Positions 8,104 through 33,164 of a stretch of DNA of 64,000 nt are shown here, piece after piece; positions within the stretch are counted from its first letter, which is position 1; each line of letters begins with the position of its first letter. The position numbers and the translations under genes were made by a program. The stretch is from Emiliania huxleyi CCMP1516 (taxonomy: Eukaryota). Under the pieces are notes generated by a model. The model did no database searches, was not told where the DNA came from, and saw only the letters and a list, made by a program, of their open reading frames with translations. Location of the stretch: NCBI RefSeq assembly GCF_000372725.1, contig NW_005201732.1, forward strand, positions 310,001 to 374,000, read 5' to 3'.

Positions 8104-10379
8104 TCAGAGCGGGATGTTGGAGTGCTTCTTCCACGGCCGCTGCACCTGCTTGTCGCGGAGCAGCTCGAGGTCCTCGCAGATGCGGGTGCGCGTCTCGCTC
8201 GGCGAGATGACCGCGTCGACGAAGCCGCGCTGCGCGGCGACGAGCGGGTTCGCAAACTTGGCCTCGTACCGCAGGGTCTCCTCCTCGACGTTCTTGCCGC
8301 GAAAGATGATCTCGACCGCGCCCTTGGCGCCCATCACGGCAACCTCGGCCGACGGCCACGCGTAGTTGACGTCGGCGCGCAGGTGCTTTGAGGACATGAC
8401 GTCGTACGCGCCGCCGTACGCCTTGCGCGTGATGACCGTCACCTTGGGCACCGTCGCCTCGGCGTACGCGAAGAGGAGCTTCGCGCCGTGCCGGATGATG
8501 CCGCCGTGCTCCTGAGCGCGGCCGGGCAGGAAGCCGGGCACCTGTGCGTCGGGGGCCGGAGAGGTCGGGGGAGGGTCCGGGGAGGGTCCGCGTGGCACGG
8601 AGGCGGGGGCACGTCGACGAATGTGAGGAGCGGGATGTTGAAGCAGTCGCAGAAGCGGACGAAGCGGGCAGCCTTGGCCGAGGCGTCGATGTCGAGGCAG
8701 CCCGCCAGCTCCTGCGGCTGGTTCGCGACGATGCCGACCGTCGCCCCCTCCATCCGCCCAAAGCCGGTGATGATGTTCTTCGCGTAGCTGGGCGAGACCT
8801 GCGCGCACACGCCGCGAGTCAGTTCTCGAGTCTCGAGAGAAAGCAGCCACGCCAGTCGAGGGGGAGGCCTCGAGCAGCTCGCGGTCATCGAGCACGCGCC
8901 GCACCAGCGCGCCCATGTCGTACGGCACGTTGGGATCCTATTCACAGCGGCAGGTGTGAAGAGACGCTGTTCACAGCTCCGCCCATGTCGTACGGCACGG
9001 CGGGATCCTCGGGGACAATCCGGTCGAGCGCCGAGTCTTGGCGCGGGGAGGGCGACGGTGAGGGGCGGGGGGGCGGATCCTGAGCGGTCGCGAGGGGAGG
9101 GGCGGGCAAAGGAGAGGGGCGGGCAAGGGGAGTGGCGGGCGGGTGGGAGCGAGGCGCGGCAGGGAGGGGAGAGGCGGCGAGATGCGGAGAGGCGGCGGGA
9201 TGCGGAGAGGCGGCGGCGAGGAGCGGCGGTGGGAGTGAGGCTCGCCTTTGCGCGCGCGCGAGTCCTCCGTCTCGCGAACCTGCGGGGCGAGGAGCAGGGT
9301 GAAGAAGGGCGGGGCGAGGAGCAGGGCGAAGAAGGGCGGGGCGAGGAGCAGGGTGAAGAAGGGGACAGGGGCGCGACAGGGGGCACGCCACCGGGCGTGT
9401 GTGCGTCCCGGGCGCCAGTGGGGCGGGTCGAGACGCCCTGGGCGGCGGCGAGGCGGGCCGTGGACGGCGGCGCGGCGGGAAAGGGTCACGGGGAGCATAG
9501 GGTCACGGGGAGCGTCTCGGAAAGTCGCACCGGCGGAGGCTCGCGGTTGGAGGAGGGGAGGAAGCCGACCAGACGGCGGAGAGCGGACATGGCCTCGAGG
9601 TCGTTGGCGGCGGAGAGGTGCGCCACGCCCGACGTGCGCGTGTGCGTGCGCGAGCCGCCCAGCTCCTCCGCCGTGATGACCTCGTTGGTGACTGTCTTGA
9701 CAACCTCGGGGCCCGTCACAAACATGTACGACGTGTGGTCAACCATCATCGTGAAGTCGGTCATGGCGGGCGAGTAGACGGCGCCGCCCGCGCACGGCCC
9801 CATGATTACCGAGAGCTGCGGCACCACCCCCGACGCCTCCACGTTCCGCTGGAAGACCTCGGCGTACCCGGCGAGCGACGCGATCCCTTCTTGGATCCGC
9901 GCGCCGCCAGAGTCGTTGAGCCCGATGACGGGCGCGCCGACGAGCATCGCCTGGTCCATGACCTTGCAGATCTTCTCCGCGTGCGACTCCGACAGCGACC
10001 CGCCGAACACTGTGAAGTCCTGCGAAAATACAAACACCCGCCGGCCGTCGACGAGGCCGTGGCCCGTCACGACGCCGTCGCCCGGCGGCACCTGCTCCTG
10101 CATGCCAAAGTCGATGCAGCGGTGCGCCTTGAGCGCGTCGTACTCGCGGAAGCTGCCCGGGTCGAGGAACAGCTCCAGTCGCTCGCGCGCCGTCAGCTTG
10201 CCGCGGTTGTGCTGCGACGCGATCCGCTGCTCGCCGCCGCCAAGCTGCGACGCGAGCACCTGCTCCTCGAGGCGCCGCCGGACGGAGGCCGCCTTGGCGA
10301 GGTGCGGCGGCGCCGCCAGCGCAGCGTTCGACGAGCTGCTCCGCGCGAAGAGGCGCACGGAGCGGGCCAGTCCAGCCAT
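8104..10379 (-). CDS. PCCB: Propionyl-CoA carboxylase beta chain, mitochondrial-type presequence, multi-exon
   Basis: [64 protein letters not shown]-terminal [10 protein letters not shown]. Confidence 0.97.
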
Positions 10380-11073
10380 TGATGAGAGATGTGTGTGCTC
10401 CGTGCCCAAGTCGGCGCGTGTTGGAAGAAATCCCAAAAATAACGAAACCTAGCGCAAGGCACTTCTCGTGCTCCAAGAGTGCGAGCTGCGAGGTTAGGTC
10501 TGGCTGTGTTTCTCCCCATCCCTTGGACTGCTTTTTTTTCTGTTAGACGACATGGAGGAGGGGAAGGGATGCGGCCCCGCGAGCGAGCATCCGAGGGATC
10601 TTCGTCATCACACGCATGCGGTCTCTCTCTCTCGTTTTTGTGTCTCTCTTTCGCTACGTGTTCAACGACGTTGAACAGTGTTTGACCACGGCGCTGTTCA
10701 CAGCGCGCGCGGACGGCAGTTCTGCGAGTCCCGCTCCGCAGGACTTTTGTAAAGCATGCTTGTGACTTGGTATTGCTAAAAATCTCTCTCTCTGCTTGTG
10801 NNNNNNNNNNNNNNNNNNNNNNNNNNNNNNNNNNNNNNNNNNNNNNNNNNNNNNNNNNNNNNNNNNNNNNNNNNNNNNNNNNNNNNNNNNNNNNNNNNNN
10901 AGGAACCGCCCCTTGCACGCCTGGACGGGCTGCGCGAGCCTGGAGGGGCGGGGGGGGGGCGGGTCGTGCGGGCGGGGCGGGGGGGGGGCGTGTGGACCGG
11001 CGGCCGGTGCGGTGCGGTCGCCTTGGTAGCTTCACAGTGTGGCGGCGGCCTGGCAGTATCTGCTCTGTGCCTT

Positions 11074-11074
11074 G

Positions 11075-11134
<60 letters not shown>

Positions 11135-11200
11135 CGTGCGTGTGTGTGTGTGTGTGTGTGTGTTTGCGTGCGTGCGTGTGTGTGTGTCCGTGTGTGTCTG

Positions 11201-11238
<38 letters not shown>
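11074..11238. repeat. (TG)n microsatellite
   Basis: Directly visible. Confidence 0.98.
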
Positions 11239-11240
<2 letters not shown>

Positions 11241-11249
11241 CGTGCGTGC

Positions 11250-12583
11250 GTGCCGCTGCAGGTCGATCTCGTCGAGGAAGACGACGCCTGGCGATCCGTT
11301 GGAGTTATTAGTTATTCAGCGCTATAGTGATTACTCCGCTCGATCTCGTCGAGGGAGAACGCCTTCTCCGACGACGGTGGCGGAGCCGTAGGAGAGGACG
11401 ACGTCGCCGTGGAAGGGCACGTGCTGCGTGATGTGCCTACAGCCGCCCCCCCCCGGCCAACCGAGGACGCGTCATCTGCGCCGCTCACACGCCGCCGCAC
11501 CCCCGCGCCGCCGCTCGCATGCTGAGAGTCGCGGTGATGCCGATGCATGTCTAGGAAGTGTCTCGGAAGTGTCTAGGAAGTGTCTCGCATGCTGAGAGTC
11601 GCGGTGATGCCGATGCGGCGGAGGCGGAGGACGAGCTGGTCGGGCATGGTCTGGTACCAGGGCGAGTCCCAGCACACGCCGAAGGTCCACCTCCCGTGGT
11701 GCACCTCCTCCACCACCAGCGAGTCGAGCACCAGCCGCGAGCCTACAGGACCGCTCGCGCAAGGCTCCGCAAAGGCGCGGCAAGGCGGCGACACCTCCTC
11801 CACCGCCAGCGAGTTGGAGCACGAGCCTGTGCCGTGTACGGCGGGGGCCCCACAGCCGGAATACGCCGTATTCCAGCGGCGCGGAACCGAGCCAGTGCCG
11901 GACCGGGCGGGAGGCGCATCTGGCAAGCGTCTCATCTAGCAAGCGCCTGGCCCGAGCGACTGCGGCTCGTTCGGCAGCGCGTCAACCTCGAAAGGGGTGC
12001 GGAAGGTGGCGTCGAGGAGGGTCTCGACGCCCTCGGTCAGGCGCTCAGAGTTCTTGTCGAACCGCTGGCACCCTTCCGGCAGCGGCGGGAAGTCGGGGTC
12101 GTACCTCTCGAGCAGCGCGGCCGTCTCGTTTTGAGAGAGCAGCGCGGCGCGCTTCTGCTCCCAATAGTAGCGGTACGCGGGTGTCCAGAAGATGAGGGCG
12201 TTGAGCATGAGCGCCGCGGTGAGGGCCAGCAAGGTGAAGAGGACCAGCGGCCAGAGGAAGCGGCGCAGCCCCCCCGGCGAGCTCTCCACGTCGGCGATGC
12301 TCATGCAGAGTGTCCTCGAGACACCCGACAGGCCCTTGGCCTCGTCCATAAAGGTCGGGCCGCTCAGGCCACCCATCGCGGACCGGGAGCGGGCGAGGTT
12401 GGGCTTGGCTCCGAGCGAGCGAGTCGTTGGGGCCTGCGTCTCTGGTGGAGAGAGCACATCCCCGTCGGCGGCGTCTTGCGCCACCGCCGACAAGCGCCTG
12501 GTCTGGATGTACTCCCTGGTCGGCTTGTCGCAGAGCGGCTCGTTTGGCTTGAGCGAGCCGGCAGCAACCCTCGTGGGTGGCAT
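11250..12583 (-). CDS. Hypothetical single-pass membrane protein, multi-exon; 3' end lost in the (CA)n tract and gap
   Basis: ORF 11936-12583 has a TM segment ([25 protein letters not shown]). Downstream exons splice in frame: ...[44 protein letters not shown]. Confidence 0.6.
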
Positions 12584-13156
12584 AGAGAGTTGGGCTTACC
12601 AAGATCGGCCGAACGCGATCAAATCGTCCAGGACGAAACGAGGCGGCACAGCGCCTTGCCTTGCAGTGTGATGTACTGGGTACCGTTTGCGAGGGAAGAA
12701 ATCATGGGGCCGCGAGTCCCATGCCAGGCAGGTTTGCCGTTCTACCCCCACCGGCCTTTGAAAAGAACAACGCGACGCGTGTTGGCCGGACCGCATCCGC
12801 GCCCGCCTTTCTGGCCTCTCGCCGTGGGCGCGCGCGGCGATCCAAGTTGCGAGGTTCCCAACACCCGCGAACTGGGGGAAAAAGTCAAGACCAGCTTTAA
12901 ATGATACGCACAGGCGCCACAGCGCACCGCGCTGCAGGAAAAGACAAATCGCACATGAGATTGGGCTTAGCACATGGAGATTTTCCGGAGAGGGGTGTGG
13001 GTGGACTATAGGCCTCTCGTCTTGCGGACAGTGCGCCGCGAGCAGAGAGCAGGGGCGAGAGCGGGGCGTCGCAAGGGGGGCGCGAGGAGCTAAGTCGATC
13101 CAGACGAGCACGACCGCTCACACGAGAGGTTGTGGAGCGCGAGGCGCTGCGCCGCC

Positions 13157-16100
13157 TCAGAGCTCGCGCATCGCGGCGCCGCCGTGGCCGTCGAAGGCGA
13201 GCTCGTGCGTGTGGTGGCGCGCGAGCTCAGGGCGGTGCGCCACGACGAGGGTGGCCGCCTCGCTCGCGGCGAGGAAGGCGAAGAAGCGCTCCTCGAAGCC
13301 GGCCTCGCAGGCGGAGGTTGGCTCGTCGGCGACGATCAGCGCCGGAGGGGAGGAGGAGCGGCACGCGAGGTAGAGGCGCGCGGCGGCGAGGCGCTGCCGC
13401 TCGCCACCGGAGAGGGAGCCGCCTGCGGGCGAGGCCGCGCCGCCGCGGTCAGCGGCGCAAGCGCGACGAAGCGAAGCGGGGAGGGGGCGGGAGCGAGTCA
13501 GCGGCGCAAGCGTGGCGAGGCTAGTGAGGGAGGGGGGGGGGGACGCCGAGGTCTGGCCGCGGCTCGTCGAGCTCGGCGCCGCCTGCGGCGAGCCTCTCGA
13601 GCCCGGCCCACGCCAGAGCCTACAGGACGGCGCCTTGAGCGCTCCTCGACCGCCCCGACAAACTTCCCAAGCGGCGGACCCAATCTGAGCCTCGAGAAAC
13701 ATGGCGTCAGCGGCGGGCGCGGCGTCGGCCAGCGGCGTGGGGTACAAGAGCTGCGCCTGCGCTCAAAGCGAAGCGAGGAGCTAAGGCGGGGGCTGGCGGG
13801 GGAGTCTCGTCCCCGCGGCGCGAGCGAGGGTGCCCGCAGACAGCCGGTCGGGAGGATGTACGGCCGCTGCGGCAGCGCGACGATCCGGTCGGACGGCGGC
13901 GTCGACACCTCGCCCGCGCGCGCCTACACGCGGCGAGGCGCCTCTGGCCCGTCACTCGGCCGGGGCGCGGCGGCGGTCCGCTCCGCGCGCGCAGCCCGCC
14001 GGCCACACGCCGAGCGCAACCCGCAGCAGCGACGACTTTCCGCAACCGTTTGGCCCCGAGACGAAGACGTGGGCTCCGCGCGGGACGGAGGCGGAGAGGG
14101 GGCCGGCGAGGGGGGGCTCGGAGAGCGCTGGCGGGGCGATGACGACGGACCGGAGCTCGAGCGCCATCCCTGCCGCCGAGCAGCGCCGCCGTGACGAGGG
14201 AGAGAGGGTGGCGCGTGTGCGCGTCGCGGGGTGAGTGTGCTGTCCCGGCTGGCTGCGCGTGGCTGGGGGGGGCGGGGTTGCACCAGAGCCCGCCGTGCGA
14301 GCCTGGACGAGGGCTCGCTCGAGCAGCGGCGGGGCCGCACCCTCGCCGCCCTTCTTGGCGGGTCCGTTGCCGTTTGCGGCTTCGGCGTGCGCCGGCTCGA
14401 GCGAGGTGAGGAGGGCGAGGACGCGGCGGGCGTGCGCCGAGGCGGTGGCTGCAGTCTTGTGCGAGAGGACGAGGTCCTGCTCACAGCCGGAGGTGTGGAG
14501 AGAGGCGTTGTGCTTTTCTGTGAAGAGAGGCGCGGGAGGGGGCGGGGTGAGGGGCGAGGGAGGGACAGGGCGGTGTTCCTTGCAAGCCATCCCAACGTGG
14601 ACGAGGAGGTGGAGCGAGGTGAGAAAGTACTCGGTCGGGTCGGCTCCGCCCGGGGCGGCGCGCACGACGGCGGGCAGCATCGCGGTGAAGGCGGCGAGGA
14701 TGCCTACGCGCCACGCGCCTCACACGCCCTCACCGCGGGGCTGCCTGCCCGCCTGAGCGGTGGAAGGCGGCGAGGGCTGTGCCGAGGTGCCGCAACACGT
14801 ACCCGTCCAGCGAGTCCGAGCCTGGGAGGGGAGGCACCGGTGGGAAGCGAGCGCGCGCGAGAGCAGGGGGAGGGCGCAAGGCTTGCCACCGAAGCGCTGC
14901 AGCTGCAGCTGCGAGGTGCGCCCGGCGGCGGCGGCGAGCGAAGCGTGCAGCGCCTCCGCCTCGGCTGCGCCGCCCCCCATGAGTGCAACCTCCTCGGCGT
15001 ACTCGACGAGGTGCGAGTGCAGCGCGAGCAGCTCCGCCTGCAGACGCTCGAGGCCAGGGCTCGAGGACGCCTCCCGCAGCGGCGCTTTCGGCGGGGGGGG
15101 GCGCTGCGGCGCGAGGAGAAGGCGGGTGAGGAGAAGGGGGGGGGGGGGTCGCCTCCGCGTCTGCCACGCCCGTCGTCATCGTCGCGATCGAGGGGCCGGC
15201 GAAGCGGGTCCAGCAGCCGGCGGCGAAGAAGAAGGAGTAGCAGTAGCAGAGCGGGCCGGGGCCCATCATGAGAGCCAGCTTGACCGAGAGGAGGGACACC
15301 TCGACCAGCGGCTTCGAGAGGGCCTGCGCGAGGGAGGTGCACGCAGGTCTGCTCGGAGGCCCGCGAGGAGGCGGCTGCACGCCTTGTGTCGTCGTCGTGG
15401 GTGGCACAAGCGGCTGCCCCCTCGCCACATCCCTCGCCGCCTCCCCCTCGCCGCGCCCTCCCGGACCCGCTCGCCCGGACCCAGTCGCCGCCGCGCGGGA
15501 GAGGGGGGGGCAAGTGGAGGGCGGGGCGGGGCGGGGCACTGCAGAGGGCGGGACAGTGCGAGCTTGCGCAGGGCAGGGCTTGCGCAGGGCAGGGCGGGGC
15601 AAGCGCAGCCGCGCACCTCGTACAGCTCGACGGCGGAAGAGCAAAACTCCGCCGGGTCTGTCAAGCACACGCCGACTGCGCCGCCGCGCGACGTGTCGGC
15701 GCTGCCCTCCGCCGCCGCCGCGAGCGCGCCGGGCAGCCTGCGCGTCGCCGTCCCCTCCGGAGCGGGCATGAGCGGCGCGTCGGCGCCCGCCGCGCCCAGC
15801 TTGTCCACGACTGTCTGCAGCAGCCGCTCGCGCAGGCAGAGCGCCGCACGCTCGCGCGAGAACTTTTGGAGGGCGGTGGTGGCGGCCGCCGGCAGCGCCC
15901 AGAGCGCGTAGGTCAGCTGCCGGCTGAAGAGCTCCTCCCACTCCCCCTTTGCGAGCAACGAGCCGAGCGAGCCGATCTCGGAAGACACCTTGACCGACAC
16001 TGCGAGCCGCACGCCCAGGCCAAGCGAGAAGACGCCGAGCCACGCGGCCGAACGGCTCCAATACGACGGCATGGCGAGACGCAGCACGGTGCGGAGCGGG

Positions 16101-16333
16101 CCGGGTGCCTTTGGAGGCCTGGACGGCGGCGGCGGCGCGACGAGTGTGCCGTCCTTCTCCGCCGGAGGCTTGAGTGCACGGCGCGCCTTGAGCTTGAGCC
16201 GGAGGAAGACGGCGCGACCGGTCACGCCGACAAAGGTGACGGCCCACCCGGCGAGGAGCACACGGCCGCGTGGCTCGTTCACCCAGGCGCGAAGGAGCCG
16301 GCTGAGGACCGAGCCCTCGACTTGGTGCACCAT
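13157..16333 (-). CDS. ABC half transporter, ABCD (peroxisomal fatty acyl-CoA importer) family, multi-exon
   Basis: Walker A GPNGCGKSSLLR, LPQRPY, signature LSGGERQRL, Walker B IVADEPTSA, VAHR; EAA-like HSHLVEYAEEVALMGG; KPLVEV TM region. Confidence 0.88.
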
Positions 16334-16360
16334 CGCCGACCCACGAAATTTCCCAAAATG

Positions 16361-16771: not shown

Positions 16772-17157
16772 AAAAATGAAAAGAATTTGATGTGCGCCGC
16801 GCGGGTGCTAGCTTTCCATCAGTTAAAATCTCTGTGTGGTGGCGGCGTGCCGTCCTCCCATCCCTCCCTTGGGTTCTCCGTTTTCTTTCTTTCTTTCTTT
16901 TTCCACCGGTTAAAATCGTACGAAAATCCCTGTGTGGTGGCGGCGTGCCGTCCTCCCATCCCTCCGTTAGGTTGTGTGCTAGTGCCAGTGCGCGCCAGTC
17001 CCGTGCCCAGTGTCGTGCGAGGGAGTTTTGTTGTAAAATTCTTCCGGCGGTAAAGTTCTTTTAACGTGCCAGTGCGCGCCAGTCCCGTGCCCAGTGTTGT
17101 GCGAGGGAGCTGGTTGTAAAATTCTTTTAACCGTTCTGAAGGTGCCTATATGGGCTT

Positions 17158-18352
17158 TGTCAGGAGACAGAACACGGAGGAGCTGTATAGGTCACTAGAG
17201 ACCCACACCATCGCTACATCACCACAGCCACCAAGTCGGATACAAGTCGATGACAATGTGCGCGGCAGGACAAACCAAACATGAGACGGTTACACAAGGA
17301 CGGTCAGGCTACGGTCAGGAAGTAGGTTTGAGTTCACACTCTCCAACACTCCCCCATTGTCTCCGCAGTCTTCATGAATGAGGATGCGGCAGACAACAAC
17401 AGCAGAGTGTGAATGTGTCTGAGCGTAGGTATGCCATCCAGACGGCAGAGACGCTCGTAGAGGCGCATTGGACTTCTTGCCAGAGGCGTTGGACAGCGGG
17501 ACGGGCTAGCGCGAGGAGGCAGGACGAGGAAGAGTCAGACAGCAATGAGGTAGAGTGGCATTGCCACGTCGAACAGATGCCCAACACTCCCCCACGACGT
17601 GATAATCGCCACACAAGGCAGAGAGGGCGTGTCGATCGTCGCGTGTTCATCGCGTACAGCTCCGGTCGTGTCGAGCGGCGACGTCGGAAGTAGCGGCGGC
17701 GAAAGGCAGGGTCCACATTCGGTGCGAGATCTTTGCGGTAGCTGCCGTTGCAGCAGCCCGAGAGCTGGTAGCGGAGGCAGCAGCTGCGATGGTGGTCCGT
17801 AGGCGAGGAGAACGGACCGGTAAGGAGAAGCAAGAGGGGATACACGTGTCCACACAGCCGCAGTGCTGGCGTAGATGCGCTCTGTCGCAGAAGATCCGCA
17901 AGCACCCAAGTTGATGTTGCGGTTGTACTCATTCTGCTCAGCCTCCGAGCCGAGCAGTTGGCGGCCGCTGTGCCACCGTGCGCCGAGCCTCTGTGCCCAG
18001 CCAATCACCACGGCTCGCGCAGTTGCCCATGGTGCCAGCCAACGTATCGAGCGTAAGCCGGAAATGCTGTGCGGCAACACATCTCGCTTGTGTGCCGCAC
18101 CAGCTCTCATGTCGGCCTCAGTGCCGCACTGCTCACTCCGTGCTCTCACCGGTCGGTACCATGTCAGGAGACGGAACACGGAGGAGCTGTATAGGTCACT
18201 AGAGACCCACACCATCGCTACATCACCACAGCCACCAAGTCGGATACAAGTCGATGACAATGTGCGCGGCAGGACAAACCAAACATGAGACGGTTACACA
18301 AGGACGGTCAGGCTACGGTCAGGAAGTAGGTTTGAGTTCACACTCTCCAACA
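17158..18352 (-). mobile_element. Complete non-autonomous LTR retroelement (TRIM-like), 1195 bp
   Basis: 191-bp TG...CA LTRs at 17158-17348 and 18162-18352 with one difference seen; 5-bp TSD GGCTT; minus-strand PBS-like TGGTACCGACC next to the 5' LTR; PPT GGGGGAG next to the 3' LTR. Confidence 0.95.
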
Positions 18353-18502
18353 GGCTTCCAGTATCGGACCTTCAACAAGACATGCGCTTTTGGCCGGAGG
18401 CTGCTTCGGACACGTCCCTTGAACAAACATATATGGGTGGTCATCGCCAATTCGCGCGCTCCGACTTGCAAGGGACTGAGAATCGAGTCATACCTCCTAC
18501 AC

Positions 18503-20875
18503 ATGGTTGACATGCTCCGCGCGGACCTCGAGGCCAGCTCGTCGCCGACCATGCGAGCAAGCAGCGACGCAAAAGGCGACGAGCCCAATGCTCGTTCCGT
18601 CGCTGCTACAAGGCCATCGCTGTGTCGTTTTCCACGCCTCGCCCCGTGCTGCGGCCTCCTCGTCGTCATCGGAGCTCTGCTCGTCGGCCTCTTCGTGGGC
18701 TGGCGCCTTCGCCCCAAGGATGGCATCGTGTCCGACCTGCTCTGCCCGAACGTGTTTGACGGACCGCCTCTCTGCCACGAGCTGCTGGACTTGCCAGGTT
18801 TCCTCGCGCCCGGCTCTCTGTTCCACGAGCAGTGTCAGGAGAAGTGCAACGAGAAAGACTCGAACGTTAGCAAGGTCTGCAGGGTCGTCAAGGCCAAGCC
18901 AGGCCTGATCCCGTGCACCACCGTTCTCGATGTGAAGGAGACTGCAAAGGCGCTGGCGAGGCAGATTGGGATGGAGTACCGGAAAGGGCAGAGCCTGCGA
19001 GAAGTAATCGAGTCGGTGGTGACGGAGGACCTGAACGGCGCGGCGCGCTCATTTTTCTGGTACTTGCGCGAGACACGCCTCGATGCGCTCTTCCTCAACT
19101 ACCTGGAAAACCCAGACGGCCCTGGTCAGCTCACCCCGACCCTGGCTCCCTACTTGCTCTCTCCCTTCGGCACGGGTGCGGCGTCTCTCCTGTCGGAATT
19201 GGGGCGGTCGATCCTGTCGATCCCCGCCATCGCCCACATTCTCTACAACTCGCACCCGAGCGCGTCCATCGCGACGGCGGAGCTTCTCAACCTCCTCGGG
19301 CGTACCGGAATCCGGGTGCCTTCGCTCGTCCCTGGGGCGCTCGGCCTCGGCCTCGCTTCCGCTCAACCTCACTCCCTTGGCTTGGGGTGGCTCGCGTCCA
19401 GCCTCCTTGGCCGCGACACGCAGCTTGTGGCGCCAGACGCTCTGGGCAAGCTGATCGACCCGCAGGTCCATGCCGGCCAAGACCAGTCGCTCGCCGTCAA
19501 GCTGACGCCAACGCCCGACGATTGGAGCGAATACGTCGAGAAGTGGTACAACGCGGGCCAGGGCATCTCCCTCCGGCGCAACGACCCGAACTACCCTCTC
19601 CTCGAACGGCTGGCTAACTACTTCCAGAACTCATGGATGAGCATGCTCCTGTTCAACATCAACGGAGATGGGGTGTACCGCTTCAGCTGCGACTACGACC
19701 GCCTCTCGAAGCTCGGCGAGGCCGCGCCCGCGCTGATGAAACACCTCGTCACCCCGGATCCCACGACGAACGAGACGCTGCTTCGCGGCGGCTCTGCCTA
19801 CGGCGAGCTCATCTTTGAGATGGTGGACCACGATGGACGGCGTGTGCTCAAGCCGAGCGCGAATCAGACGCTGCTGCAGCCGCGCCAGCTTTCAGCGTTG
19901 CTGCAGTGCGCGCACAACGGTGCCCAGATCTACCACGTCGGCCTCCACGTTGCGTCGCAGTCGATGGCGTACGCGAGCAAGGATCTCGCCACTGGCCACC
20001 AAGATCTCTCCCAGGATCCCGTCTTCCGCATGCTCAACCCTGGCCGCGATGCGACGTCGAATATCAACGCGGCGGCCGACGCATCACTGGTGAACGTGCC
20101 CGGCTTCGGGTCGCGCCGCCTGAACGCAGCCGACATGAAGGCCCTCAAGGTCCACGGCGTCGCGCCCCTCCTCGCCGACCCGTGCAATGCGTCTCGCTAC
20201 AACCCCCGCCACGACCAGCACGTTACCGAGGCCACGCTCGGCCAGCTGAATTTGTTCAACCCTACCGGCCGCCGCGCTCTCGGCATCATCTGCGCCGACG
20301 TGAGCGAGCCGGAGCAGGCCATCCAGCTGCCGGAGCGGGCGTGGGGCCAATACGTCCGGCGGCTGCGCGACGACCTCCACATCGCCTCCCAGGTCGAGCC
20401 CGTCTACATCGAGCGATACGAGCCGCCCCTCTCTGCCATGGCGATCGGGATAGAGCACACGATGACCTTCTCCATCAACTTCCTTTGGGCCGAGCTCGAG
20501 CGGCAGCCGCCCGCCGAGGCCCTGCCGTTCGCCGACATGCCCAATCCTCGCGCGTTCGGCGCCGCCTTCTTCCTCGACGTTGTCGCCTCCGCAGTCATCA
20601 CCGTCTTCTCGCACAAGACTTTGCTGGAGTGCTCCGAGCCGATCCCGGAACACACGCAGACATCCATCACGAACGAGCAGCTGATTGTGGCCGACTTCCC
20701 GCGCTCCATCGAGCTCGGCTACGACGTCAAGCTGCGCAAGATGGCGCACAGCCTGCGTGCGCTGTGGGCGGAGACGAGCCTCTTCATGGAGGCGCACCAC
20801 CCGGGCTCCCCGGTGATGAATGCCTCGTTTGTCTACGAGGTTCAGCGGTGCGTCTCCTCCTCCACCTGGATCTGA
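18503..20875 (+). CDS. Divergent lipoxygenase-like protein with N-terminal TM anchor, intronless (~790 aa)
   Basis: Long clean ORF. Motifs in LOX order: ISLRR, CDYDRL, DGRRVLKP, QIYHVGLH, DPVFRMLNPG...NINAAADASLV, GIEHTM, C-terminal SSSTWI. Confidence 0.65.
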   Translation: MVDMLRADLEASSSPTMRASSDAKGDEPNARSVAATRPSLCRFPRLAPCCGLLVVIGALLVGLFVGWRLRPKDGIVSDLLCPNVFDGPPLCHELLDLPGFLAPGSLFHEQCQEKCNEKDSNVSKVCRVVKAKPGLIPCTTVLDVKETAKALARQIGMEYRKGQSLREVIESVVTEDLNGAARSFFWYLRETRLDALFLNYLENPDGPGQLTPTLAPYLLSPFGTGAASLLSELGRSILSIPAIAHILYNSHPSASIATAELLNLLGRTGIRVPSLVPGALGLGLASAQPHSLGLGWLASSLLGRDTQLVAPDALGKLIDPQVHAGQDQSLAVKLTPTPDDWSEYVEKWYNAGQGISLRRNDPNYPLLERLANYFQNSWMSMLLFNINGDGVYRFSCDYDRLSKLGEAAPALMKHLVTPDPTTNETLLRGGSAYGELIFEMVDHDGRRVLKPSANQTLLQPRQLSALLQCAHNGAQIYHVGLHVASQSMAYASKDLATGHQDLSQDPVFRMLNPGRDATSNINAAADASLVNVPGFGSRRLNAADMKALKVHGVAPLLADPCNASRYNPRHDQHVTEATLGQLNLFNPTGRRALGIICADVSEPEQAIQLPERAWGQYVRRLRDDLHIASQVEPVYIERYEPPLSAMAIGIEHTMTFSINFLWAELERQPPAEALPFADMPNPRAFGAAFFLDVVASAVITVFSHKTLLECSEPIPEHTQTSITNEQLIVADFPRSIELGYDVKLRKMAHSLRALWAETSLFMEAHHPGSPVMNASFVYEVQRCVSSSTWI

Positions 20876-21031
20876 GATGAAGGTATTGCAATAGAGAGTA
20901 CACCTGTTGATGTGCAGTGAGAGCAAGGGTCTCGGTGTTGGCTTGTCTTGTCTAGTGAGCACGGATTCTCGGTTATCGTACATAGCGACGGGTCAATGGA
21001 CGATGCGCCGTCCCTCTCAGTCTCACGCCAT

Positions 21032-21373
21032 ACGAGGTATTTTCTTCTCAATAAAACAAGGTCTGTGAACGTGTATGCAAGGTCTTGTTTCTTATCTGCC
21101 CGCGGGCCGACCCTCACAGCTAACAGCTCACCTATCTGTGAATCTCATAGACCAGCGCAAAGCGCCACAGGAGGTATTTTCTTCTCAATAACAAGGTCTG
21201 TGGAATACGAGGTATTTTCTTCTCAATAACAAGGCGGTGAGGTATTTTCTTCTCAATAACAAGGCTGTGAAGCCATCCCCAGGGCCTCCAGGGCTCGCAC
21301 CTCAACCTCTCACAGACCAGCGCATAGCGCCATAGGACGTATTTTCATTTTCTTCTCATAACAAGGCTGTGAA
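21032..21373 (+). repeat. Cluster of about 5 copies of a ~30-bp motif inside a dispersed upstream repeat
   Basis: gaggtattttcttctcaataacaagg(t)ctgtgaa near 21034, 21173, 21209, 21239 and 21338; related copy inverted at 39327-39440. Confidence 0.85.
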
Positions 21374-21450
21374 TCACCCTACTGTGAAATGAAAGCGGCA
21401 TACGGCCGTCGCCGCCCGTCGCCGCCCGTCGCCTCGAAGGGTCGAAGCCT

Positions 21451-22833: not shown

Positions 22834-22864
<31 letters not shown>

Positions 22865-23166
22865 ACAGCTCGCTCGGCGCGATGGCTGCGAGGCACAACC
22901 ACAGGGCCCGCGGTCACGCGGCGACGAACGCTGCGACGACTGCCGCAATCTGGTGCTCCGCCGTGGTTGGGGCGGGCGCGCTCGCCGTGGCGTTCGGAAT
23001 GCTCCTCCGGGCCAAGGGGCACACCCGCTTCGCGAAAGTCCTCGGCTCCGAGGGCGAGTACGAGCTGGAGCCCGGGCCTGCCGACAGGTCTCGGGCGCCA
23101 AAACGCCGCGGACGCAGGCAGTCACAAGACAGGGAGCTGGCTCCAGCAGAGGAGAGTCCAAGGTGA
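21451..23166 (+). CDS. SGNH/GDSL hydrolase with C-terminal TM segment
   Basis: Blocks YGDSITHG, NLGWGG, IGTND, DGLHP; poly-Pro linker then hydrophobic AIWCSAVVGAGALAVAFGMLL; start uncertain. Confidence 0.88.
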
Positions 23167-23659
23167 CGCGCACCGCTTGCGGTGGTGGATCGTGGCCCAC
23201 GATGAGACGGTTGAACGGTTCTCGCTTCTTCGTACTTCGACTTCGTGCTTCGTCTGGTGCTGGTGCTGGTGTGAAGATATCTCAGAAAATCTCCCCACAC
23301 TCAGCCGGCCGTGCTCTCGCTCTTAGCTTGAGGTTGAGCTAGCAGCAGGGCCTTGCTCTCGGTCCCCACACTCAGCAGGGCCGTGCTCTCGCTCTTGGCT
23401 TGAGAGAGCAGGAGGGCCAGGTGCACAACCCCTGGTGCCGCAACGACAGGAAAACTCACCCGCCTCCTGCACCCCGTAACCGCACAAAAAGCGTATTAGG
23501 ACTCTGTGGAGGACCCTGTGTGAGTTCCATGGTGAATTCTGTGCGAGTTACACCCTTTTTTGTGTGTGTGCGTTGCCGATTCAAACGTGCCACGCACATG
23601 TGCATCGTACAGCCCATGCACATGCGCACATGCTACATGCATGTTGCACTCTCTTGCAC

Positions 23660-23712
23660 ATGTCCATGTCCATGTCCATGTCCATGTCCATGTCCTCCAT
23701 GTCCATGTCCAT
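23660..23712. repeat. (TGTCCA)n hexamer repeat
   Basis: Directly visible. Confidence 0.95.
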
Positions 23713-23773
23713 GGACGCACATGCACCTCCCCTGCTCTGCAGACCCATGTGCAGACCCGCCTTCAACGGATTT

Positions 23774-25188
23774 TTAGTAGACTTGGACGGTCTCTGGGTC
23801 GGCGCCGCCAGCCTGGCGCCGAGGCGCCTTTGCGGGTGCGACGACTCCGCCGGAGCCCACGACTCGGCTCCTGGCGGGCCCGGCCGCGGCCCGGCCGGCG
23901 ACCACGCGGTCCCGCGCCTCGACGAACGCGTTCCGCTGGGCGAGCGCCGCCTGCGCCACCTTGCGCACGCACACGAGCTGCACGATGAAGTTGTTTCCGA
24001 AGTGGAGCAGCACCGGCAGCGCCAGGCCGCCGCCCGTGCCGAGGTAGGCGGCGCCGAAGACGAGGCCGCCGAGGAAGGTCCACGCGGCGTAGATGGAGCG
24101 CTGCACGGCAGAGCGCTCGTTCCAGATGTGCATCGCCCCGAAGACCGCCGAGCTCAGCGCGGCGGCGAGCGGCGCCGGCAGCCGCGCCTTTGAGACGAGC
24201 CCGTGGAGCAGCAGCGCGCGGAAGAGCACCTGGGAGGCGGCGGCAGGGGACAATGCAAGGAGCGTGGCAGGGAGACGCCGCCCTCTCCCACCCGCCAGGT
24301 CGGCCTCATCTCGTCCTCCTCATCTCGGCCACATCTCCCTCCTCATCTCGGCCACATCTCGGCCACATCTCCTGAAATCTCGAATCTCGCCTCCTCGCCC
24401 ATAGAGCTGCCGGCGGCGAGCTGGAGGATGGGGAGCAGGATGGCGCCGCGCGTGGCGGGGCGCCGCAGCGCCGCCCACAGCGAGAGTCGGGGAGGCTCGT
24501 CGCCTGAGGCGCTGCCGCCGCCCGCCGCCGCCTCGGCAGCTTCTGATGCGGCGGAGTCCACCCAGACGGCAACACCGTCGCGGCAAGTGACCGCGGCGAG
24601 CTTCTGGCCAAAGTCGGACGGGCAGCCGGCGAGCTGCCGCAGGCCTTGCGTCGCCGCCTGCAGCAGCCCCAGCAACGTCGCCGTCGCCGCCGCCACCGCC
24701 ACCGTGGAGGTGAGGGGCAGCAGGCGCGCGCGGCTGGGCAGCCTCCCGAGCGGCGCAAAGCGGCAGAGGACGACGCCGAGCAGCGAGCCGGCTGCGGTCT
24801 GCATGTTGAGCTGCGACAGCAGCCGGCCGCCGAGCGCGGCGGCGAAGACGGCGTTGTCGTCGGCGAGGATGGCGTCCAGCGGCAGGTCGGACAGGAAGGT
24901 GGCGCCCGAGTGCTCGTTCAGCTCCGCGAGGACACGCTCGGCGTGGAGGACGTGCGCGTTGCGCCGCTCGAGCAGCCGCGCGCGCGCTTCGTGCAGCCGC
25001 AGCCGCAGCACGTCGTCGCTCTCCCACGGCGCGTGATCCGTCTCACGCAGTGCAAGCTCCGCCTCGAGCGAGGTGCGGTTCATCTTGTGGACGGCGCCAC
25101 CGCTCACGAGCGCGCCAAGGATGGGCTGGTCGGATCCGAGCGCAGCACGGGCGCACGCCGAGAGGACGAGGACGAGGTGAAGCCTCAT
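23774..25188 (-). CDS. CPBP/Abi (type II CAAX protease) family intramembrane metalloprotease with signal peptide
   Basis: EE|VLFR across intron ~24230-24392, SSAVFGAMH, LLHFGNN; N-terminus MRLHLVLVLSACARA. Confidence 0.85.
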
Positions 25189-26772
25189 ATATACATTAAG
25201 TGAGAGACAGGCACGAAGCGGAGAGAAAGGCGGCGAGAGCTGGCGCGGGTGAAGAGGAAACAAAAATAACGCACGGGCCCACAGCGGAGCTGGGAAGAGG
25301 ACCGCCGCAAGCGGCGTGGCGTGGAGCGGTTGTGCATCCCTCCGGGGGCCCCTCTGCGCCGGGGAGGCGTTGTTGGAGGCTAGGACGCAAGCGTCCGTCG
25401 CCCTTTTCAAACTCGGGGCCCACTCCGCTACGCTCCGACCCGAATTTGGAGGGCCTGAAAGTTTAAGGTGTTGCTGCGCAAAAGGGGTCGGACGCAGGGC
25501 GCAGCTCATGCTAAGAGCTAGAAGAGGAGATAGAGAGAACAACCACCCTGTCCCGTTATTGCGTACACCAACACCACAAAACGCTCTCTCTCTCTCCTGT
25601 CCTCACTCAGGGGGGTCACAACTACCAAGTCCCTCGACTAGCTGCCACAGGGCGCAGCTGCCACAGGGCGCAGCTGGAGACGCTCTCCCTCAATCGGCAT
25701 CCACCCCCACCCGCTCCAGCCCCACTTCTGCTGCCGAGAGAGCTGAATCGAAGCAAGCGAGCCATTGCATCTTGGCGTGCTCCTGGAGCGCGGCTTTCTG
25801 CTTGGCGGCCACGAGCACGGCGGAGTCGGCGTCGTAGCGCGCATCGTTCCCGCTCATCGCCCATTCCTCCCACGTGACGTGTGTCGGCCGCGATTCGATA
25901 TCGCCACCTTCATCGCCAACGAGGACTCCCTCGACTGCAGGGGGCTCCGGCACGGGGAGGGACTCCGCCTGCTGCGCTGGCCGACCGCGCCCTCCTCCTC
26001 CATGGGCTCGATCCGAATCCGCAGCGTGTCGTCCCCAGCGGCGGTGTTCTCGCGGGAGGCGGCCGCGGGCACGCTGGGCTCGATCAGCGGCTTTCCCTCA
26101 GTTGCTCCGAAAGCACGGATTTGGCGGCGTTCTTGGCTTCAATTTTACGAATGTCTTGGCACCAGCTGAAGGCTTGCATCCGACATCACGCAGTTCGTGC
26201 ACGGTATTCGGATTTTGCTATTTGTTCGTGTGGGGGTATATTGCAGATTTGTCAATGGTACCGCGTCTGCGACGCGGGCGCCTTGCGAGCAGAGCCCTTA
26301 GGACACCCTTTATATCTTGCGCGGTCAAAATTGATACCTCTTCTTTTGGCACCTCCTGATATAATGCTGAGCGGGGCGGAGGCATGTGGGTGGTGGAGGC
26401 GGCGGCGGACGACGTCTACTACCTGGCCGCCCCCTGTGGTAGCTTAGCGATCAGGGAGGATCTACCTGTTCGGCCTCGAGGGAGCTGCTTGGGGAGAGAG
26501 GGGGGGGGGAGAGGAGAGGAGGAGACACTATGTGTCGCCGTTATCGGGGCACGCTATCCTGTGCAGTCAGGGCAAGTGGGGGCGGGGGGCACTCCCATCT
26601 CTCCTGTGTACGGGTGGTGACTGTCCCTAGTCTCGGAGGGGGGCTTGAAGGTAAGAATATTTTATTTTGTGAGAGAGGCTTGTATCTAGATCTCCGAAGA
26701 ATTCTTTGCGGCCCAGCCGCCAAAGTGAATGCCTACCGGCTGCCCAGCCGCCCCGCCGCAGCGCTAATCGCC

Positions 26773-28562
26773 ATGCCGATCCGCCGCATCTCCCCGGAGC
26801 TGATCGACGAGGTGTGCGGCTCGGTCACTCCCACATTGTCGGTGCTGAACCTGTCGCACAACGAGATTGCGACCGTCGAGAACCTGGACCGGCTCGCAGC
26901 GCTCACGCGCCTCGACCTCAGCCACAACCGCATCACGCGTCTCACCGGCCTCGAGAGCCTCAGCCGGCTGTCGTTTCTCTCGCTCACGTCCAACCGGCTC
27001 CGCGCCGTCACGGGCCTCGAGCACCTCCGACTCCTCGAGGTGCTGCTCCTCGGCGACAACCAGCTCGGCTCCGTTGCGTGCCTGCGCGCCCTCTCGTGGC
27101 TGCCAGAGCTGCGCACGCTCACGCTCGCAGGCAGTCCGCCCCCCGCTCTCCCAAGACCCACGCCTCGCACACCCACACGCACCGGCCACAGGCTCCCCAC
27201 GCCTCGCGCAGGCAACCCGCTCGCCGACGCCTCATCACACACCGCCTTCGTCGCGAGCCTCCTGCCGCGCCTCACGCTGCTCGACGGCGAGCCGCTGCGA
27301 GGGCGAGAGAGCCCGCCGCCCGGCGCCCTCGCGGTGCGCGCCTCGCCGGCTGAGGCGGAGCTGCAGGCCGATCGCCCTCGCCCGGCTGAGCCAGCTGCGG
27401 GGGAGGAGGAGGAGGAGGAGGAGGAGGAGGAGGAGGAGGAGGAGGAGGAGGAGGAGGAGGCTGCCGAGGAGGCTCGCCGGCAGCCTCGGGCGCTGCAGCT
27501 GGCGCTGCCTCCGCTGACAGACCTCGCCTCTCTCCTCCCCCCCTCCTCCTGCCCGCCTCGCCTCGACTGCGGCTTGGCGGCGGTGCTGCCCTCGTGGCCG
27601 CCGCTGCCGCTGCCGGCAAGAGACCGACGCGGAGGCATCACTCTTCCCAGAGGGCGAGGCGGGTCACTCTGGCGGCGGGGGGCGCTGTAGGCGCCGCCGC
27701 CGGCCGCCTCGCCGCCCGGCCGGCCGACCGAATGCGCCTCCCTCCGCAGCTCACGCGAGCAGTCGCTCTTGCGTCCTGACTCGCCCCGTGTTGAGCCACC
27801 AGGCGCGAGACTTGTCGAGCCGTCCAGGAGGCTGCTCGCTGCTCGTACTCTGCTCGGAGCCGCCCCCTGTAGGCGCCAGCTGGCCGAGCCCGCCGCTCGA
27901 CACCCGGCGGGGAGGCCACGCCGCGAGGCGCGGCTGCTCGTGCGACTCCGACGCTCCGTCCGCCGGGGGCACCTCTCTCGGAGAGAGCACCCCTCTCGGA
28001 GAGAGCACCCCGGGAGAGAGCACCTCGGGAGAGAGCACCCCGGGAGAGTGTGGCCACAGCCTCTACCACAACCTCTCTCCGCCGCGTGCGAGTCCGCCGG
28101 CACCGGCGCCGCCCCCGAGTCCGCCGGCGTTGGCGCCGCCCTCCCCGCCCGCTCCTCCGCCCGCGTGGCGAGATCCCCCGCGTGCCTCCGCCGCGCTGCT
28201 CTCTCCTCCGCTGAGTGGCAAGCCGCGCCCTCCGTCGCCTCCGTCGCCTCGGCCGACGCACGCGGCGCGGGTCTCTCGCTTGCACGCGCAAGCTGCGCCC
28301 TCGTGGCGCGAGCTGTGAGCGCTTCGCCCCGTCCTGTCTCAGGCGCACGTGGAGGAGGAGCTCCTGCTCTCGCGCAAGCAGCTGGCGCAGGCGCGGGCAG
28401 AGGCCGATGCGGCGAGGGCGGACGCGGATGCCGCGCTCGCCGAGGCCAAGGCGGCGAAGGAGGAGCGGGCGTCGGCGCGCGAGCTGCCCCGAGCGTGCGC
28501 CTCTGCGAGCGCTTCCCCGCCACCAGCCCGTGGCCTCGCTGCCGACCGACCCGTGCCTTGTT

Positions 28563-28612
<50 letters not shown>

Positions 28613-30815
28613 GCGTGTGGCGGCGAGTGCGAGTCGTTGCGGCTGGAGAAGGAGCTGCTCGAGATGCGGCTCGATGCGATGGGGCAGCTGCTGCAGCTGC
28701 AGGACGAGGCGATGGGCCTCGGCGGGGCGGACGGCGCCGCCGAAGCGGGCGGCGAGGTCGTCGACCAAGGCGGGGAGGAGGAGGAGGGGGAGGGCGACGC
28801 ACTAGCCGCCTCCTCGCTGCGGGCTTTGGCTGCGGGCTGGCGCGAGAAGGCGCGAGGGCGGGTGGCGCTCTCTCCCCCCCCGCCCGACCGCCACACTGCC
28901 AAGCCGCTCCCCTCCCTCCCCCTCCCTCCCCCTCCCCCCCCCCCCCCTCCTCCCCTCCCTCCCCGGTAGGCGCACGAGCAGCTGCTTCGCGCCCAGCGCG
29001 AGGGCCACTCGCGCAGGCGAGCCGTCGCGTACCTCGAGGGAGAGCTTCGCGAGGCGCTCGAGGAGAACGCACGCTTGCGCCGCGAGGCGGTCGAGGCCGA
29101 GGCGCGCTGTGAACGGCGTCTCTCCAGGGCGGGGCTGTGAACAGCGTCTCTTCACACCTGCTGCTGTGAGTAGGCGCGCGTCGCCCTCTCCAAGGCGGAG
29201 CTGGCCGCGGAGGCGGCGGCCAGGCGCGCGTCCGGGTGCGATGTCACGAGGTGTGAACAGCGTCTCTTCACGCGTGTCGCGGAGAACAGGCGTGCGGCAG
29301 AGTCCGAGGCGGCAAAGGTGAGCGGCGCGCACGCGGCCGCCTGCAGCGCCCTCGCCGAGCGGCAGAGCGAGGCGGGCGAGCTGCGCGGCGTGGCGGCGTC
29401 CCTCTGCCGCTCGCTGCGCGACGAGCTGCCCGCGGTCGTGGAGGCCGCGGCGGCGCGGCTCGCCGGCGCAGAGGGCCGCCTCGTGCCCCTCGAGGAGCGG
29501 CTCGAGTTTGCCTGCGGCCGGCTCGCCGCTCTGCCGGCCCTGCTGGCCGCCGCCAAGAGGACGGCCTCGCCCGTGCCTTCGCCGCCCTGCCCCGCCGCCG
29601 GTGCGTCGTGTGCGGAGGGGCCGCCGTCCGCGCCCCCCGCTTCGCCGCCCTCCGCCTCGCCATCCCCCGCCTCGCCGCCCTCCGCCTCGCCATCCCCCGC
29701 TTCGCCGCCCTCCGCCTCGCCGCCCTCCGCCTCGCCACACCTCGCCGCCGAGGTGGAGCGGCTCGCGGCGGAGCGGCGGGCGCTGCTGCGGCGGCTCGAG
29801 CGGCTCGGCGAGGAGGAGGAGGCGCGGGCCCGCGGCGTGCGCGGCGAGGCGGAGGCGCGCGTGATCGCCGCGCGCGGCGAGGCGGAGGCGGCGCTGGCGG
29901 AGGCGGAGGGGGCGCGGGAGGCGGCGGCGAGGCTGCAGCGAAGCGCCGAGGAGAGCGAGGCGCGGGCGGCGGCCGCCGAGGCGGCGGCGGCGGCGCATAC
30001 GGCCGAGGCGCGGCGAGAGGCGGCGGAGGAGCGGTCGCGCGCCGAGGCGTGCCGCACGACGATGACGGAGGCGGTGGGCAGCTTGCAGGCGGAGCTGAGC
30101 AGCGCACGGCAGGCGGTGCAGCGGCTGGAGCGGCGAGCGGCGCGGGGCGCTGCCGAGGCGGAGGCGACGCAGGAGGCGCTGCTCGCGCGGCTGGCAGAGG
30201 CGGAGAGCAGGCACGACAGCGAGCGCGCTCTCGCTCGCGGGGCGGCGGAGGCGTCTGCCCAACAGGCGGCGCGGCGGGCGGAGGAGGCTGCGGCAGACGC
30301 GGCGAGGGAGGCGAGGTGCGCGCTCGAGGCGGAGGCCGCGCGGCTGCGGAGGGAGGCCGCGGCGGCGGAGCTCACGCACCGGTCGCTCGAGCGCGAGCTC
30401 TCGCGAGTGAAGGTGGGCGCCGCACTTGCTCCCGTGGCACGGCCGCCCCTCCCGACACCCCCTGGAGCTCGCCGCCACGCAGGCGCAGGCGGAAGAGGCT
30501 GCCCGCGCCCAGTCGGAGCTCCACGAGGGCAAGATCCGCTCGCGCGACGCGCAGCTCGCGACGGCGCGGCGCGAGCGCAACGCGCTGCTCGCGGCGCTGC
30601 GGACGGAGCAGCGCGCCAACGCCGCCAGCGCTGCCGCAGCAGAGGCACCAGCCGCACCGGCGACGCCCCAGCCGAGGCAGGCGGGTGGGAGGGCGGCGCC
30701 CACCACCGGGGCCGACGATTGTGGCGAGCGAAGCCGCCGCGGGCTCCTGTCCGCCGCCAAACTGGACGAGCTGCGCGCCCTCACCAGCAACTTGATGGCG
30801 ACGGAGGCAGTGTGA
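26773..30815 (+). CDS. SDS22-type leucine-rich-repeat protein with long coiled-coil C-terminus, multi-exon
   Basis: About 5 LRRs (LNLSHNEI, LDLSHNRI, LSLTSNRL, LLLGDNQL, LTLAGNPL); cap LPRLTLLDG; poly-Glu; A/E/R-rich heptads. Confidence 0.8.
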
Positions 30816-33150: not shown

Positions 33151-33164
33151 TACGCATCCCCCCC

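Follow-up and report, generated by a model that had tools for sequence, protein, structure and literature searches.

Introns can be gained by tandem duplication of an AG|GT sequence, and by break repair with short direct repeats, as in Daphnia. They are also made by introners, of which some carry one splice site and borrow the other: those of dinoflagellates bring the acceptor and co-opt a GH donor (H being A, C or T) from a 4- or 8-nt duplication of the target (10.1101/2020.10.14.339549). GA and GC donors arise in such "carry 3', co-opt 5'" introners because the duplication starts with GH. Here we describe a 40-nt element of Emiliania huxleyi CCMP1516, found in a 64,000-nt stretch of contig NW_005201732.1 (positions 310,001 to 374,000, forward strand; "the window", whose own coordinates are used below), which ends in the acceptor of three introns and, at most of the sites analysed in other contigs, is preceded by a donor that matches the start of the following exon.

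The donors of E. huxleyi are unusual: about 56% GC, 40% GT and 4% GA among 241 hand-curated junctions, ascribed to the GC content of the genome (PMC4028052). The introner surveys that cover the species demand similarity at both intron ends. The supplement of the 2022 survey (PMC9860276) counts 653 E. huxleyi elements, 82% of them in genes; its Supplementary Tables 5-6 contain three 37-nt families (54-57% GC content, mostly GT donors; 308, 138 and 30 copies), and 70-nt families of 19 and 158 copies are listed as well. The 2025 survey (PMC12130899) has in its Dataset S2 a 45-copy 37-nt family classed as long terminal repeat (LTR), with a 4-nt "target site duplication" (TSD) at offsets 4-7 and at the end, and also a 5-copy 70-nt family with "10bp terminal direct repeats". 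For the 37-nt and 70-nt families, TSD and terminal inverted repeat (TIR) are entered as "?" or "N" and the class as LTR or Unknown (PMC9860276, PMC12130899). One listed family is matched by Novosib-1_EmiHux (Repbase), and E. huxleyi is absent from the accessible main text of the 2022 preprint (10.1101/2022.06.06.494994) and of the 2025 paper (PMC12130899). Statements on published systems, here and below, refer to the accessible passages of the papers cited.

Element introns in two genes of the window

Three introns of the window end in a copy of the element:

8938..9007, minus strand: 70-nt GA-AG intron of the propionyl-CoA carboxylase beta gene (PCCB), from RNA-type contigs
8980..9007, minus strand: 5' half of that intron, a 28-nt duplicate of the downstream exon start (26/28), which gives the GA donor
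8938..8977, minus strand: element copy 1 (40 nt), ending in the acceptor AG; its final 26 nt (8963-8938) are an imperfect palindrome
8910..8937, minus strand: exonic copy of the duplicated PCCB target, encoding DPNVPYDMG
29102..29173, plus strand: 72-nt GC-AG intron in coiled-coil exons downstream of a leucine-rich repeat (LRR) domain, from a contig joint
29102..29133, plus strand: mosaic 5' half of that intron, with a 6-nt exon-start copy, a partial element start (29108-29127, 3 mismatches) and exon-like sequence again
29134..29173, plus strand: element copy 2 (40 nt)
29224..29289, plus strand: 66-nt GC-AG intron, from a contig joint
29250..29289, plus strand: element copy 3 (40 nt), its 3' half diverged (profile score 48, null maximum 11)

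The contigs come from four runs that carry no RNA label on record and are treated as RNA-type, since they omit all five PCCB introns. In PCCB, the joint 8931->9002 leaves out 70 nt in all four runs (four studies); it can slide over 8 nt, and as a single register ends in AG, the intron is 9007-8938, of GA-AG type. The spliced product is protein EMIHUDRAFT_428897 of E. huxleyi CCMP1516 and matches P0122. In the second gene, whose exons around 29100 may belong to the LRR gene 2 kb upstream (LRR domain at 26773-27132), the joints 29099->29172 and 29220->29287 omit 72 and 66 nt, each in three of the four runs; run X9 has no contig covering these two introns, and the other three runs cover both. Introns of 98-263 nt are also spliced in these genes.

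An earlier note, made from the letters of the window alone, had reported that 8977-8938 (minus) and 29134-29173 (plus) agree at 38 of 40 positions, in sense orientation and with a terminal acceptor. All of this is borne out, and the joints show both acceptors in use. The note had also derived each donor from an upstream copy of the exon start; this is right for PCCB, and in the second gene it holds for the first 6 nt, exact, after which the mosaic of element and exon begins. A "20-bp partial copy" at 29252-29271 proves to be part of the full-length, diverged copy 29250-29289, which stands at an acceptor of its own that is used. The 20-mer core is exact at 8956-8975, 29136-29155 and 29252-29271 and has three mismatches at 29108-29127 (shuffle mean 0.01); a 14-nt core occurs exactly three times in the window and in none of 100 shuffles. 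Summed depth in the element bin was 1,600-9,800, against about 5-300 for host exons (both layouts), with dozens of contigs from other loci, which shows that the sampled strains hold many copies and gives no copy number.

A family of introns with duplicated exon starts

The family was sampled by scanning metagenome contigs with an exact 20-mer, and all family counts below are counts among the matches listed. There are at least 130 matches at at least 120 loci (mean GC content 0.69), which clustering reduces to 94-95 independent loci (125 sites to 95, with array loci over-merged); distinct sites, the three of the window included, number 127. Locus L011 is the PCCB orthologue and has the same insert (98.6% over 856 nt), L009 resembles a chance match, and the other loci carry no individual species assignment. 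About 14 additional copies lie within 110 kb of locus flanks (hand count); viral contigs, searched with two patterns, and prokaryote genomes gave no match. Similar sequence therefore stands in introns of many unrelated genes, as expected of an introner, and the fear of few copies voiced in the earlier note can be laid aside. The density in the window, 3-4 copies per 64 kb, would correspond to 7,000-9,000 copies in an assumed 150 Mb (95% range 1,500-24,000), a figure biased upward because the window was chosen for its copies.

The typical intron, about 68 nt long, is composed of a 10-39-nt copy of the start of the following exon, which begins with the GC, GT or GA donor, 0-15 or more nt of filler, and the 40-nt element ending in AG. 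The canonical 3' end is found at 111 of the 127 distinct sites. At 101 of these the flank was sufficient (array members and a few duplicates from the same locus are counted), and at 83 of the 101 the sequence that follows the AG has an upstream copy, compared with 36 of 1010 controls. These 83 duplicates are 10-39 nt long (median 25), so a short TSD of fixed length (2-10 nt) is not what is seen, and they start with GC (42), GT (24), GA (9) or another dinucleotide (8). The donor equals the exon start in 70/83 and is preceded by G in 71/83: the acceptor is carried, and the donor is co-opted from the target duplication. When sites were searched without assumptions on splicing, 106 of 117 proved to have a flanking direct repeat, with a period of 59-79 nt in 101 of the 106; the implied introns, likewise of 59-79 nt, fall in all three length classes modulo 3.

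A codon model derived from 1,080 window codons was applied to 66 sites, after removal of array members, non-G starts and short flanks. Of these sites, 59 are sense to the host coding frame, and excision restores that frame in 51 of the 66; for lengths other than 3n it does so in 35 of 46, against 7 if the insert were retained. Together with the removal of all three examined introns from RNA-type contigs, this points to precise splicing that restores the mRNA. Random orientation and the lack of any tie to acceptors, which the earlier note had allowed for, do not describe the family. Duplicate and filler together are nearly constant at about 30 nt (SD 3.2, against 8.3 if independent; 77 sites). 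Of the same 77 duplicates 29 are perfect, so that some events must be recent, and junction microhomology is modest, above background (23/77 vs 15.5%, p 0.001; a companion test is biased by the calling of duplicate ends).

A sequence that occupies the region of branch point and acceptor might be a convergent splicing signal, or the inserts might be assembly artefacts, and we find both barely credible: near identity over 40 nt, subfamilies, locus-specific duplications and the inverted copies described below are unlike a signal, while the PCCB insert recurs in an independent metagenome assembly (L011) and is removed in the RNA-type contigs.

Anatomy of the element and its probable identity with survey families

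The final 26 nt of the element form an imperfect palindrome of two 11-nt arms, complementary at 9 of 11 positions with two constant C.C mismatches, around a variable 4-nt loop that is often itself palindromic. The right arm is terminal and the left begins at position 15 of 40, and in the profile consensus an 11-nt direct repeat is common to both element ends. The earlier description of the element as apparently TIR-less thus gives way to an internal palindrome plus terminal direct repeats. Inverted repeats at both termini, as in a TIR element or miniature inverted-repeat transposable element (MITE), were not found in the family, of which few copies (L070, L039, L002) begin at or near the arm. 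Among 107 copies, conservation is 79-100% at those arm positions that the query does not include. Where the first 12-14 nt are missing, as in some copies, the exon copy is longer and the total remains near 66-70 nt. At the 3' end there is no poly(A) or simple-repeat tail, since the element ends in AG and the duplicate follows.

Inside the element lies a GT..AG piece, 37 nt long in 91/91 canonical copies, with 53.8% GC content and with ACAG at offsets 4-7 and, in 64 of the 91, also at its end. Judged by this length, GC content and the same ACAG offsets, the 37-nt survey families are very probably this element, seen through gene models whose donor is false; in the contigs examined here, in contrast, the introns are 66-72 nt long and start in the exon duplicate. 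The 70-nt survey families fit whole-intron clusters of the element. The LTR retroelement label of Dataset S2 was considered and rejected: the terminal repeats are 11 nt long, and the 4-nt "TSD" matches the element's own internal repeat.

Filler and probable parent introns

Between unrelated loci, 7 pairs have at least 8 nt in common next to the element, against 1.6 expected (two nulls). An entire intron recurs in the unrelated genes of L032 and L058, identical over its 29-nt 5' half; the two loci otherwise have little in common, and upstream of the intron just CAG. The 5' half of this intron resembles the L058 exon (17/20, one gap, tied best of 95) and not that of L032; L058 may encode a RAD16-like helicase; Pfam and PDB gave no match on the 95-aa piece. 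L072 and L080 share 10 nt and the loop, and the stretch is exon-derived in L072 only. About one true parent-daughter pair is expected in 94 loci (10,000 copies, all possible parents), and 2-4 candidates are seen. Elsewhere similarity does not reach both intron ends: the 5' half is locus-specific at most sites, and whole-intron identity was met once (L032/L058). Filler copied from the element's own loop was rejected, no covariation being found (direct and inverted, p 0.16 and 0.93).

At L005, L016, L033, L045, L099 and L111, intron and exon disagree over their first 4-7 nt and agree over the next 12-20; either parent sequence may sometimes replace the start of the exon during copying, or the parent may have supplied the entire 5' end.

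Inverted, truncated and rearranged copies

Where the element is inverted (L029, L082, L090, L046), the opposite strand reads as a G|GH...AG intron whose AG belongs to the duplicate; these cases were interpreted by hand, as the automatic sense/antisense register count did not discriminate, and the host strand is known for L029 and L082. Two L029 copies lie 30 nt apart in opposite orientation with filler and loop in common, and the inverted copies L082 and L090 retain the exact AG end, which splicing does not need there. The loop is flipped in L006, L071 and L100, and L034 is a fold-back. L015 is a 3'-truncated copy that ends within the element at 9 nt of exon homology. It has a counterpart in the window, where a further, diverged copy of the element is also found:

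37890..37967, minus strand: predicted 78-nt GT-AG intron of a P-type H+-ATPase gene, from protein comparison
37913..37960, minus strand: filler of that intron, about four tandem copies of the element's left palindrome arm
14477..14516, minus strand: diverged fourth copy of the element, mainly its 26-nt palindrome, at a likely acceptor in an ABC transporter gene (ABC domain; profile score 19, null maximum 11)

Protein P0125, 99% identical, lacks the 26 codons of the ATPase insert, as do homologues, and both predicted splice sites lie within a 30-nt duplication (37990-37961 and 37912-37883). Of the tandem amplification of the core proposed in the earlier note, the roughly four copies are there, and they supply filler only; in this intron as in L015, both splice sites come from a duplication of 30-39 nt.

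These rearrangements bear on an RNA-templated route, in which intron RNA or pre-mRNA would be joined or primed at G|G sites, by target-primed reverse transcription (non-LTR or Penelope-like enzyme) or by partial reverse splicing into an R-loop. Such a route would yield a copy of the parent intron that is truncated at its 5' end and fixed at the AG, next to a duplication that is long and variable. It agrees with the 3' end fixed at 111 of 127 sites, with the near-exclusive location in sense coding exons and with L032, which contains exactly one whole parent intron; non-LTR elements and Penelope-like elements also show long variable duplications and 5' truncation (PMC8557442, PMC9977147). We nevertheless hold it to be rather unlikely: inverted insertions, loop flips and fold-backs require that the other strand served as template, both L015 and the ATPase intron terminate inside the element at exon microhomology, there is no poly(A) or tandem tail, and no reverse transcriptase was found among the 108 of 151 window open reading frames scanned.

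Neighbouring copies are more alike than random ones (15.3 vs 14.2 of 18; 12 pairs, p 0.012). Tandem arrays of duplicate plus element occur at L017, L019, L027, L042, L073 and L082 and in RNA contigs, as would be expected from slippage between direct repeats. At the same six loci AG|G junctions stand head to tail with no exon between them, which makes them candidate recursive splice sites.

Host repair alone might suffice, if tandem duplications at break sites captured templated inserts from nearby intron ends in a polymerase-theta-like manner, with no dedicated enzyme; the survivors in exons would be inserts that bring a branch point and AG, and the commonest template would win by positive feedback. 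The junction microhomology, the mosaic 5' half at 29102-29133, the iterated core of the ATPase intron, the likeness of neighbouring copies and the many different parents (few shared fillers; about one pair expected, 2-4 candidates) all accord with this, and its duplication, copying and selection steps are those of the mechanism that we favour below. What makes it improbable to us is the dominance of one 40-nt family with arms 79-100% conserved and an exact end even when inverted, which suggests sequence-specific recognition.

Element-free introns

Ten element-free introns of three genes (an eleventh was excluded by a motif filter) weakly match their own next exon at +2 to +8 (3.7 vs 2.8 of 7, p 0.0035), a hint that older introns arose in the same way as the element introns. 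At 8542-8612, 8799-8868, 35359-35521 and 36952-37142, the first 5-9 nt of the intron match the start of the next exon; one of these four has a GA donor, and two are 70-71 nt long, like the element introns.

The weak match also suits a reading without intron gain, in which exon-start copying is a general habit and old introns were rewritten in two parts, ectopic gene conversion from a common motif replacing the 3' half and local slippage from the next exon the 5' half; nor was an empty allele found among the few overlapping loci. At most sites, however, the duplicate starts exactly at donor and acceptor and in a single register; inverted copies yield introns with a duplicate-derived AG, and two independent overwriting events would be needed per intron, so that we consider this reading highly improbable.

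Proposed mechanism

We lean, with slightly better than even confidence, towards a non-autonomous copy-and-paste introner, copied at the DNA level from existing introns into nicked targets. A staggered break or pair of nicks would produce the 10-39-nt target duplication, starting at G|G; target-primed DNA synthesis would then copy an existing element from its fixed AG end through the hairpin, overshoot for a variable distance into the parent's 5' half (the filler) and rejoin the target at a short microhomology. The first two bases of the duplicate (GT, GC or GA) would become the donor and the element would give the AG, and probably also the branch point, presumably the motif TTCAC, with its A about 20 nt from the end. 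Selection would retain cleanly splicing insertions only, which would account for the sense orientation, the G|GH sites and the length window of 59-79 nt. The lead candidate for the trigger is a trans-acting, Replitron-type HUH nickase that reads the terminal hairpin; the insertion geometry of Replitron-1 is the same (PMC10288648). The inverted and flipped copies favour a DNA template; that one hairpin dominates, and that inversion leaves the end exact, speaks for a sequence-specific trigger. The mobile or copy-templated module donating a 3' splice site that the earlier note had in mind fits the copies, their sense orientation and the use of the AG; its mobility we infer, and inverted insertion can make introns as well.

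Several observations weigh against this proposal. Covariation in the palindrome is weak (only pairs 25-30, 26-29 and 27-28 exceed shuffles, a result inflated by related sequences), and the folding energy of single copies is ordinary (z -2.0 to +0.2). The near constancy of duplicate plus filler at about 30 nt is left unexplained by the copying step. About 40% of the genome is coding, yet nearly all copies of the element lie in coding exons, beyond what selection alone easily explains. Chosen by an exact 20-mer, the family sample represents one lineage only; the direction L058 to L032 is suggestive only; and with no empty allele among overlapping loci, we infer insertion and net intron gain. No Pfam match to a mobilising enzyme, a Y1 Rep HUH transposase included, was found in the 108 of 151 window open reading frames scanned. 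Replitron-1 and Replitron-N1 of Chlamydomonas differ from the element in size (910 bp-3.6 kb, with Replitron-N1 at about 910 bp, vs 40 nt), in their RG target and in their under-representation in genes (PMC10288648), and the haptophyte Replitrons in the accessible text of Craig are those of Phaeocystis antarctica and Chrysochromulina tobinii only (PMC10288648).

Other repeats in the window

The longer parent element that the earlier note suggested looking for did not emerge, the flanks of duplicate-less sites having nothing in common. Three window repeats, at 39335-39296 (its score of 10.8 is within the null maximum of 11.2), at 10702 and at 21064-21383, were rejected as parents, as only about 11 nt are shared with the element.

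Related non-coding repeats, with a common 30-nt unit and blocks of about 60 nt, lie at 20980-21400 (plus) and 39250-40340 (minus). In the latter, short inverted and tandem repeats are nested, and the element start is matched twice over 11 nt at a spacing of 29 nt, which is that of the element's terminal repeats; the profile score does not exceed the null range. A transcribed repeat upstream of PCCB (10640-10765) contains the first 12 nt of the element, and RNA contigs of other loci align to it with many differences and a shared loose end at 10764 (two studies). Non-coding tandem arrays fill 32251-33535 (a 125-nt unit repeated 7 times, 97% alike, and a 126-nt unit 2.5 times). A 204-nt direct repeat (97%) stands at 17158-17361 and 18162-18365, 1 kb apart in a lower-GC stretch, and is adjoined by an 890-codon open frame without Pfam match (18203-20872, plus); three 111-nt units about 80% alike (6776-7126) lie in another open frame without Pfam match. 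A short A-rich dispersed repeat is intergenic at 4948, 44260, 47295 and 52800 and recurs at L059:117-219 (87% over 103 nt).

Implications

Since the donor is the first two bases of the duplicated exon, the element introns have GC (42), GT (24) and GA (9) donors among 75 that begin with GH, and the exon duplicate offers a mechanistic, testable cause for the unusual donors of E. huxleyi. The survey count of at most 653 falls short of the density-based 7,000-9,000 because surveys need end-to-end similarity. A systematic annotation error is flagged too, as false 37-nt introns leave duplicated peptides in gene models. As each 5' half records target and parent, genealogies and ages of intron gains become readable: a rare natural record of intron birth, with a possible link between HUH transposons and intron gain.

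Tentatively, and with some doubt, one may go further. Intron 3' ends of E. huxleyi might be self-propagating, with any 26-40-nt hairpin copy templating a new intron by long target duplication, half of it written by the exon; this process would have built most of the tens of thousands of introns and caused the GC-majority and GA donors, older introns being its decayed products. If true, self-propagating intron ends would be a route to mass intron gain that is invisible to whole-intron similarity searches, and the driver would be either the smallest known Replitron-type element or host repair alone.

Comparison with known systems

Intron gain by tandem duplication resembles the ATPase intron and L015, in which both splice sites come from the duplication. 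Gains by tandem duplication or break repair are, however, one-offs with unrelated inserts, whereas here one family fills very many sites. For a long exon duplication or a parent-derived filler in introns we found no published description, in a search that left outside subscription papers, Repbase, the survey sequence archives and bioRxiv supplements.

Penelope-like elements (Chlamys) and non-LTR elements share with the element 5' truncation, a partial tandem terminal repeat, inverted pieces and variable duplications (PMC8557442, PMC9977147). The E. huxleyi element differs in having no tail and no coding parent and in being far smaller, and the accessible passages on those elements do not describe intron formation (PMC8557442, PMC9977147). 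Membership of the non-LTR, short interspersed nuclear element (SINE) or Penelope-like class was rejected: the element ends in AG followed by the duplicate, and no Rfam family matched in the window.

With Replitrons the element has in common short terminal direct repeats and, as in Replitron-1, a fuzzy end from the parent flank combined with a variable TSD (PMC10288648). The palindrome lies at the fuzzy end in Replitrons and at the fixed end here; as far as the accessible text goes, Replitrons make no introns (PMC10288648), and no Rep transposase is linked to the E. huxleyi element. The RG target beside the fixed end was not found in the family either, sense copies standing at G|G[C/T/A], where splice selection may mask an enzyme preference.

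The introners of Symbiodinium, Polarella glacialis (classes 4-10) and Aureococcus, like the element, carry the AG and take a GH donor from the target duplication (10.1101/2020.10.14.339549; 10.1101/2022.06.06.494994). In them too an inverted repeat ends at the acceptor, and some classes function in both orientations. Their duplications are fixed at 4 or 8 nt, the element is approximately the whole intron, and TIRs stand at both ends. In E. huxleyi, by contrast, a variable duplication of 10-39 nt makes up nearly half of the intron, the left arm lies 14 nt inside the element, and parent filler is carried along. The element thus functions like an introner, and is neither a TIR/MITE introner nor an LTR element.

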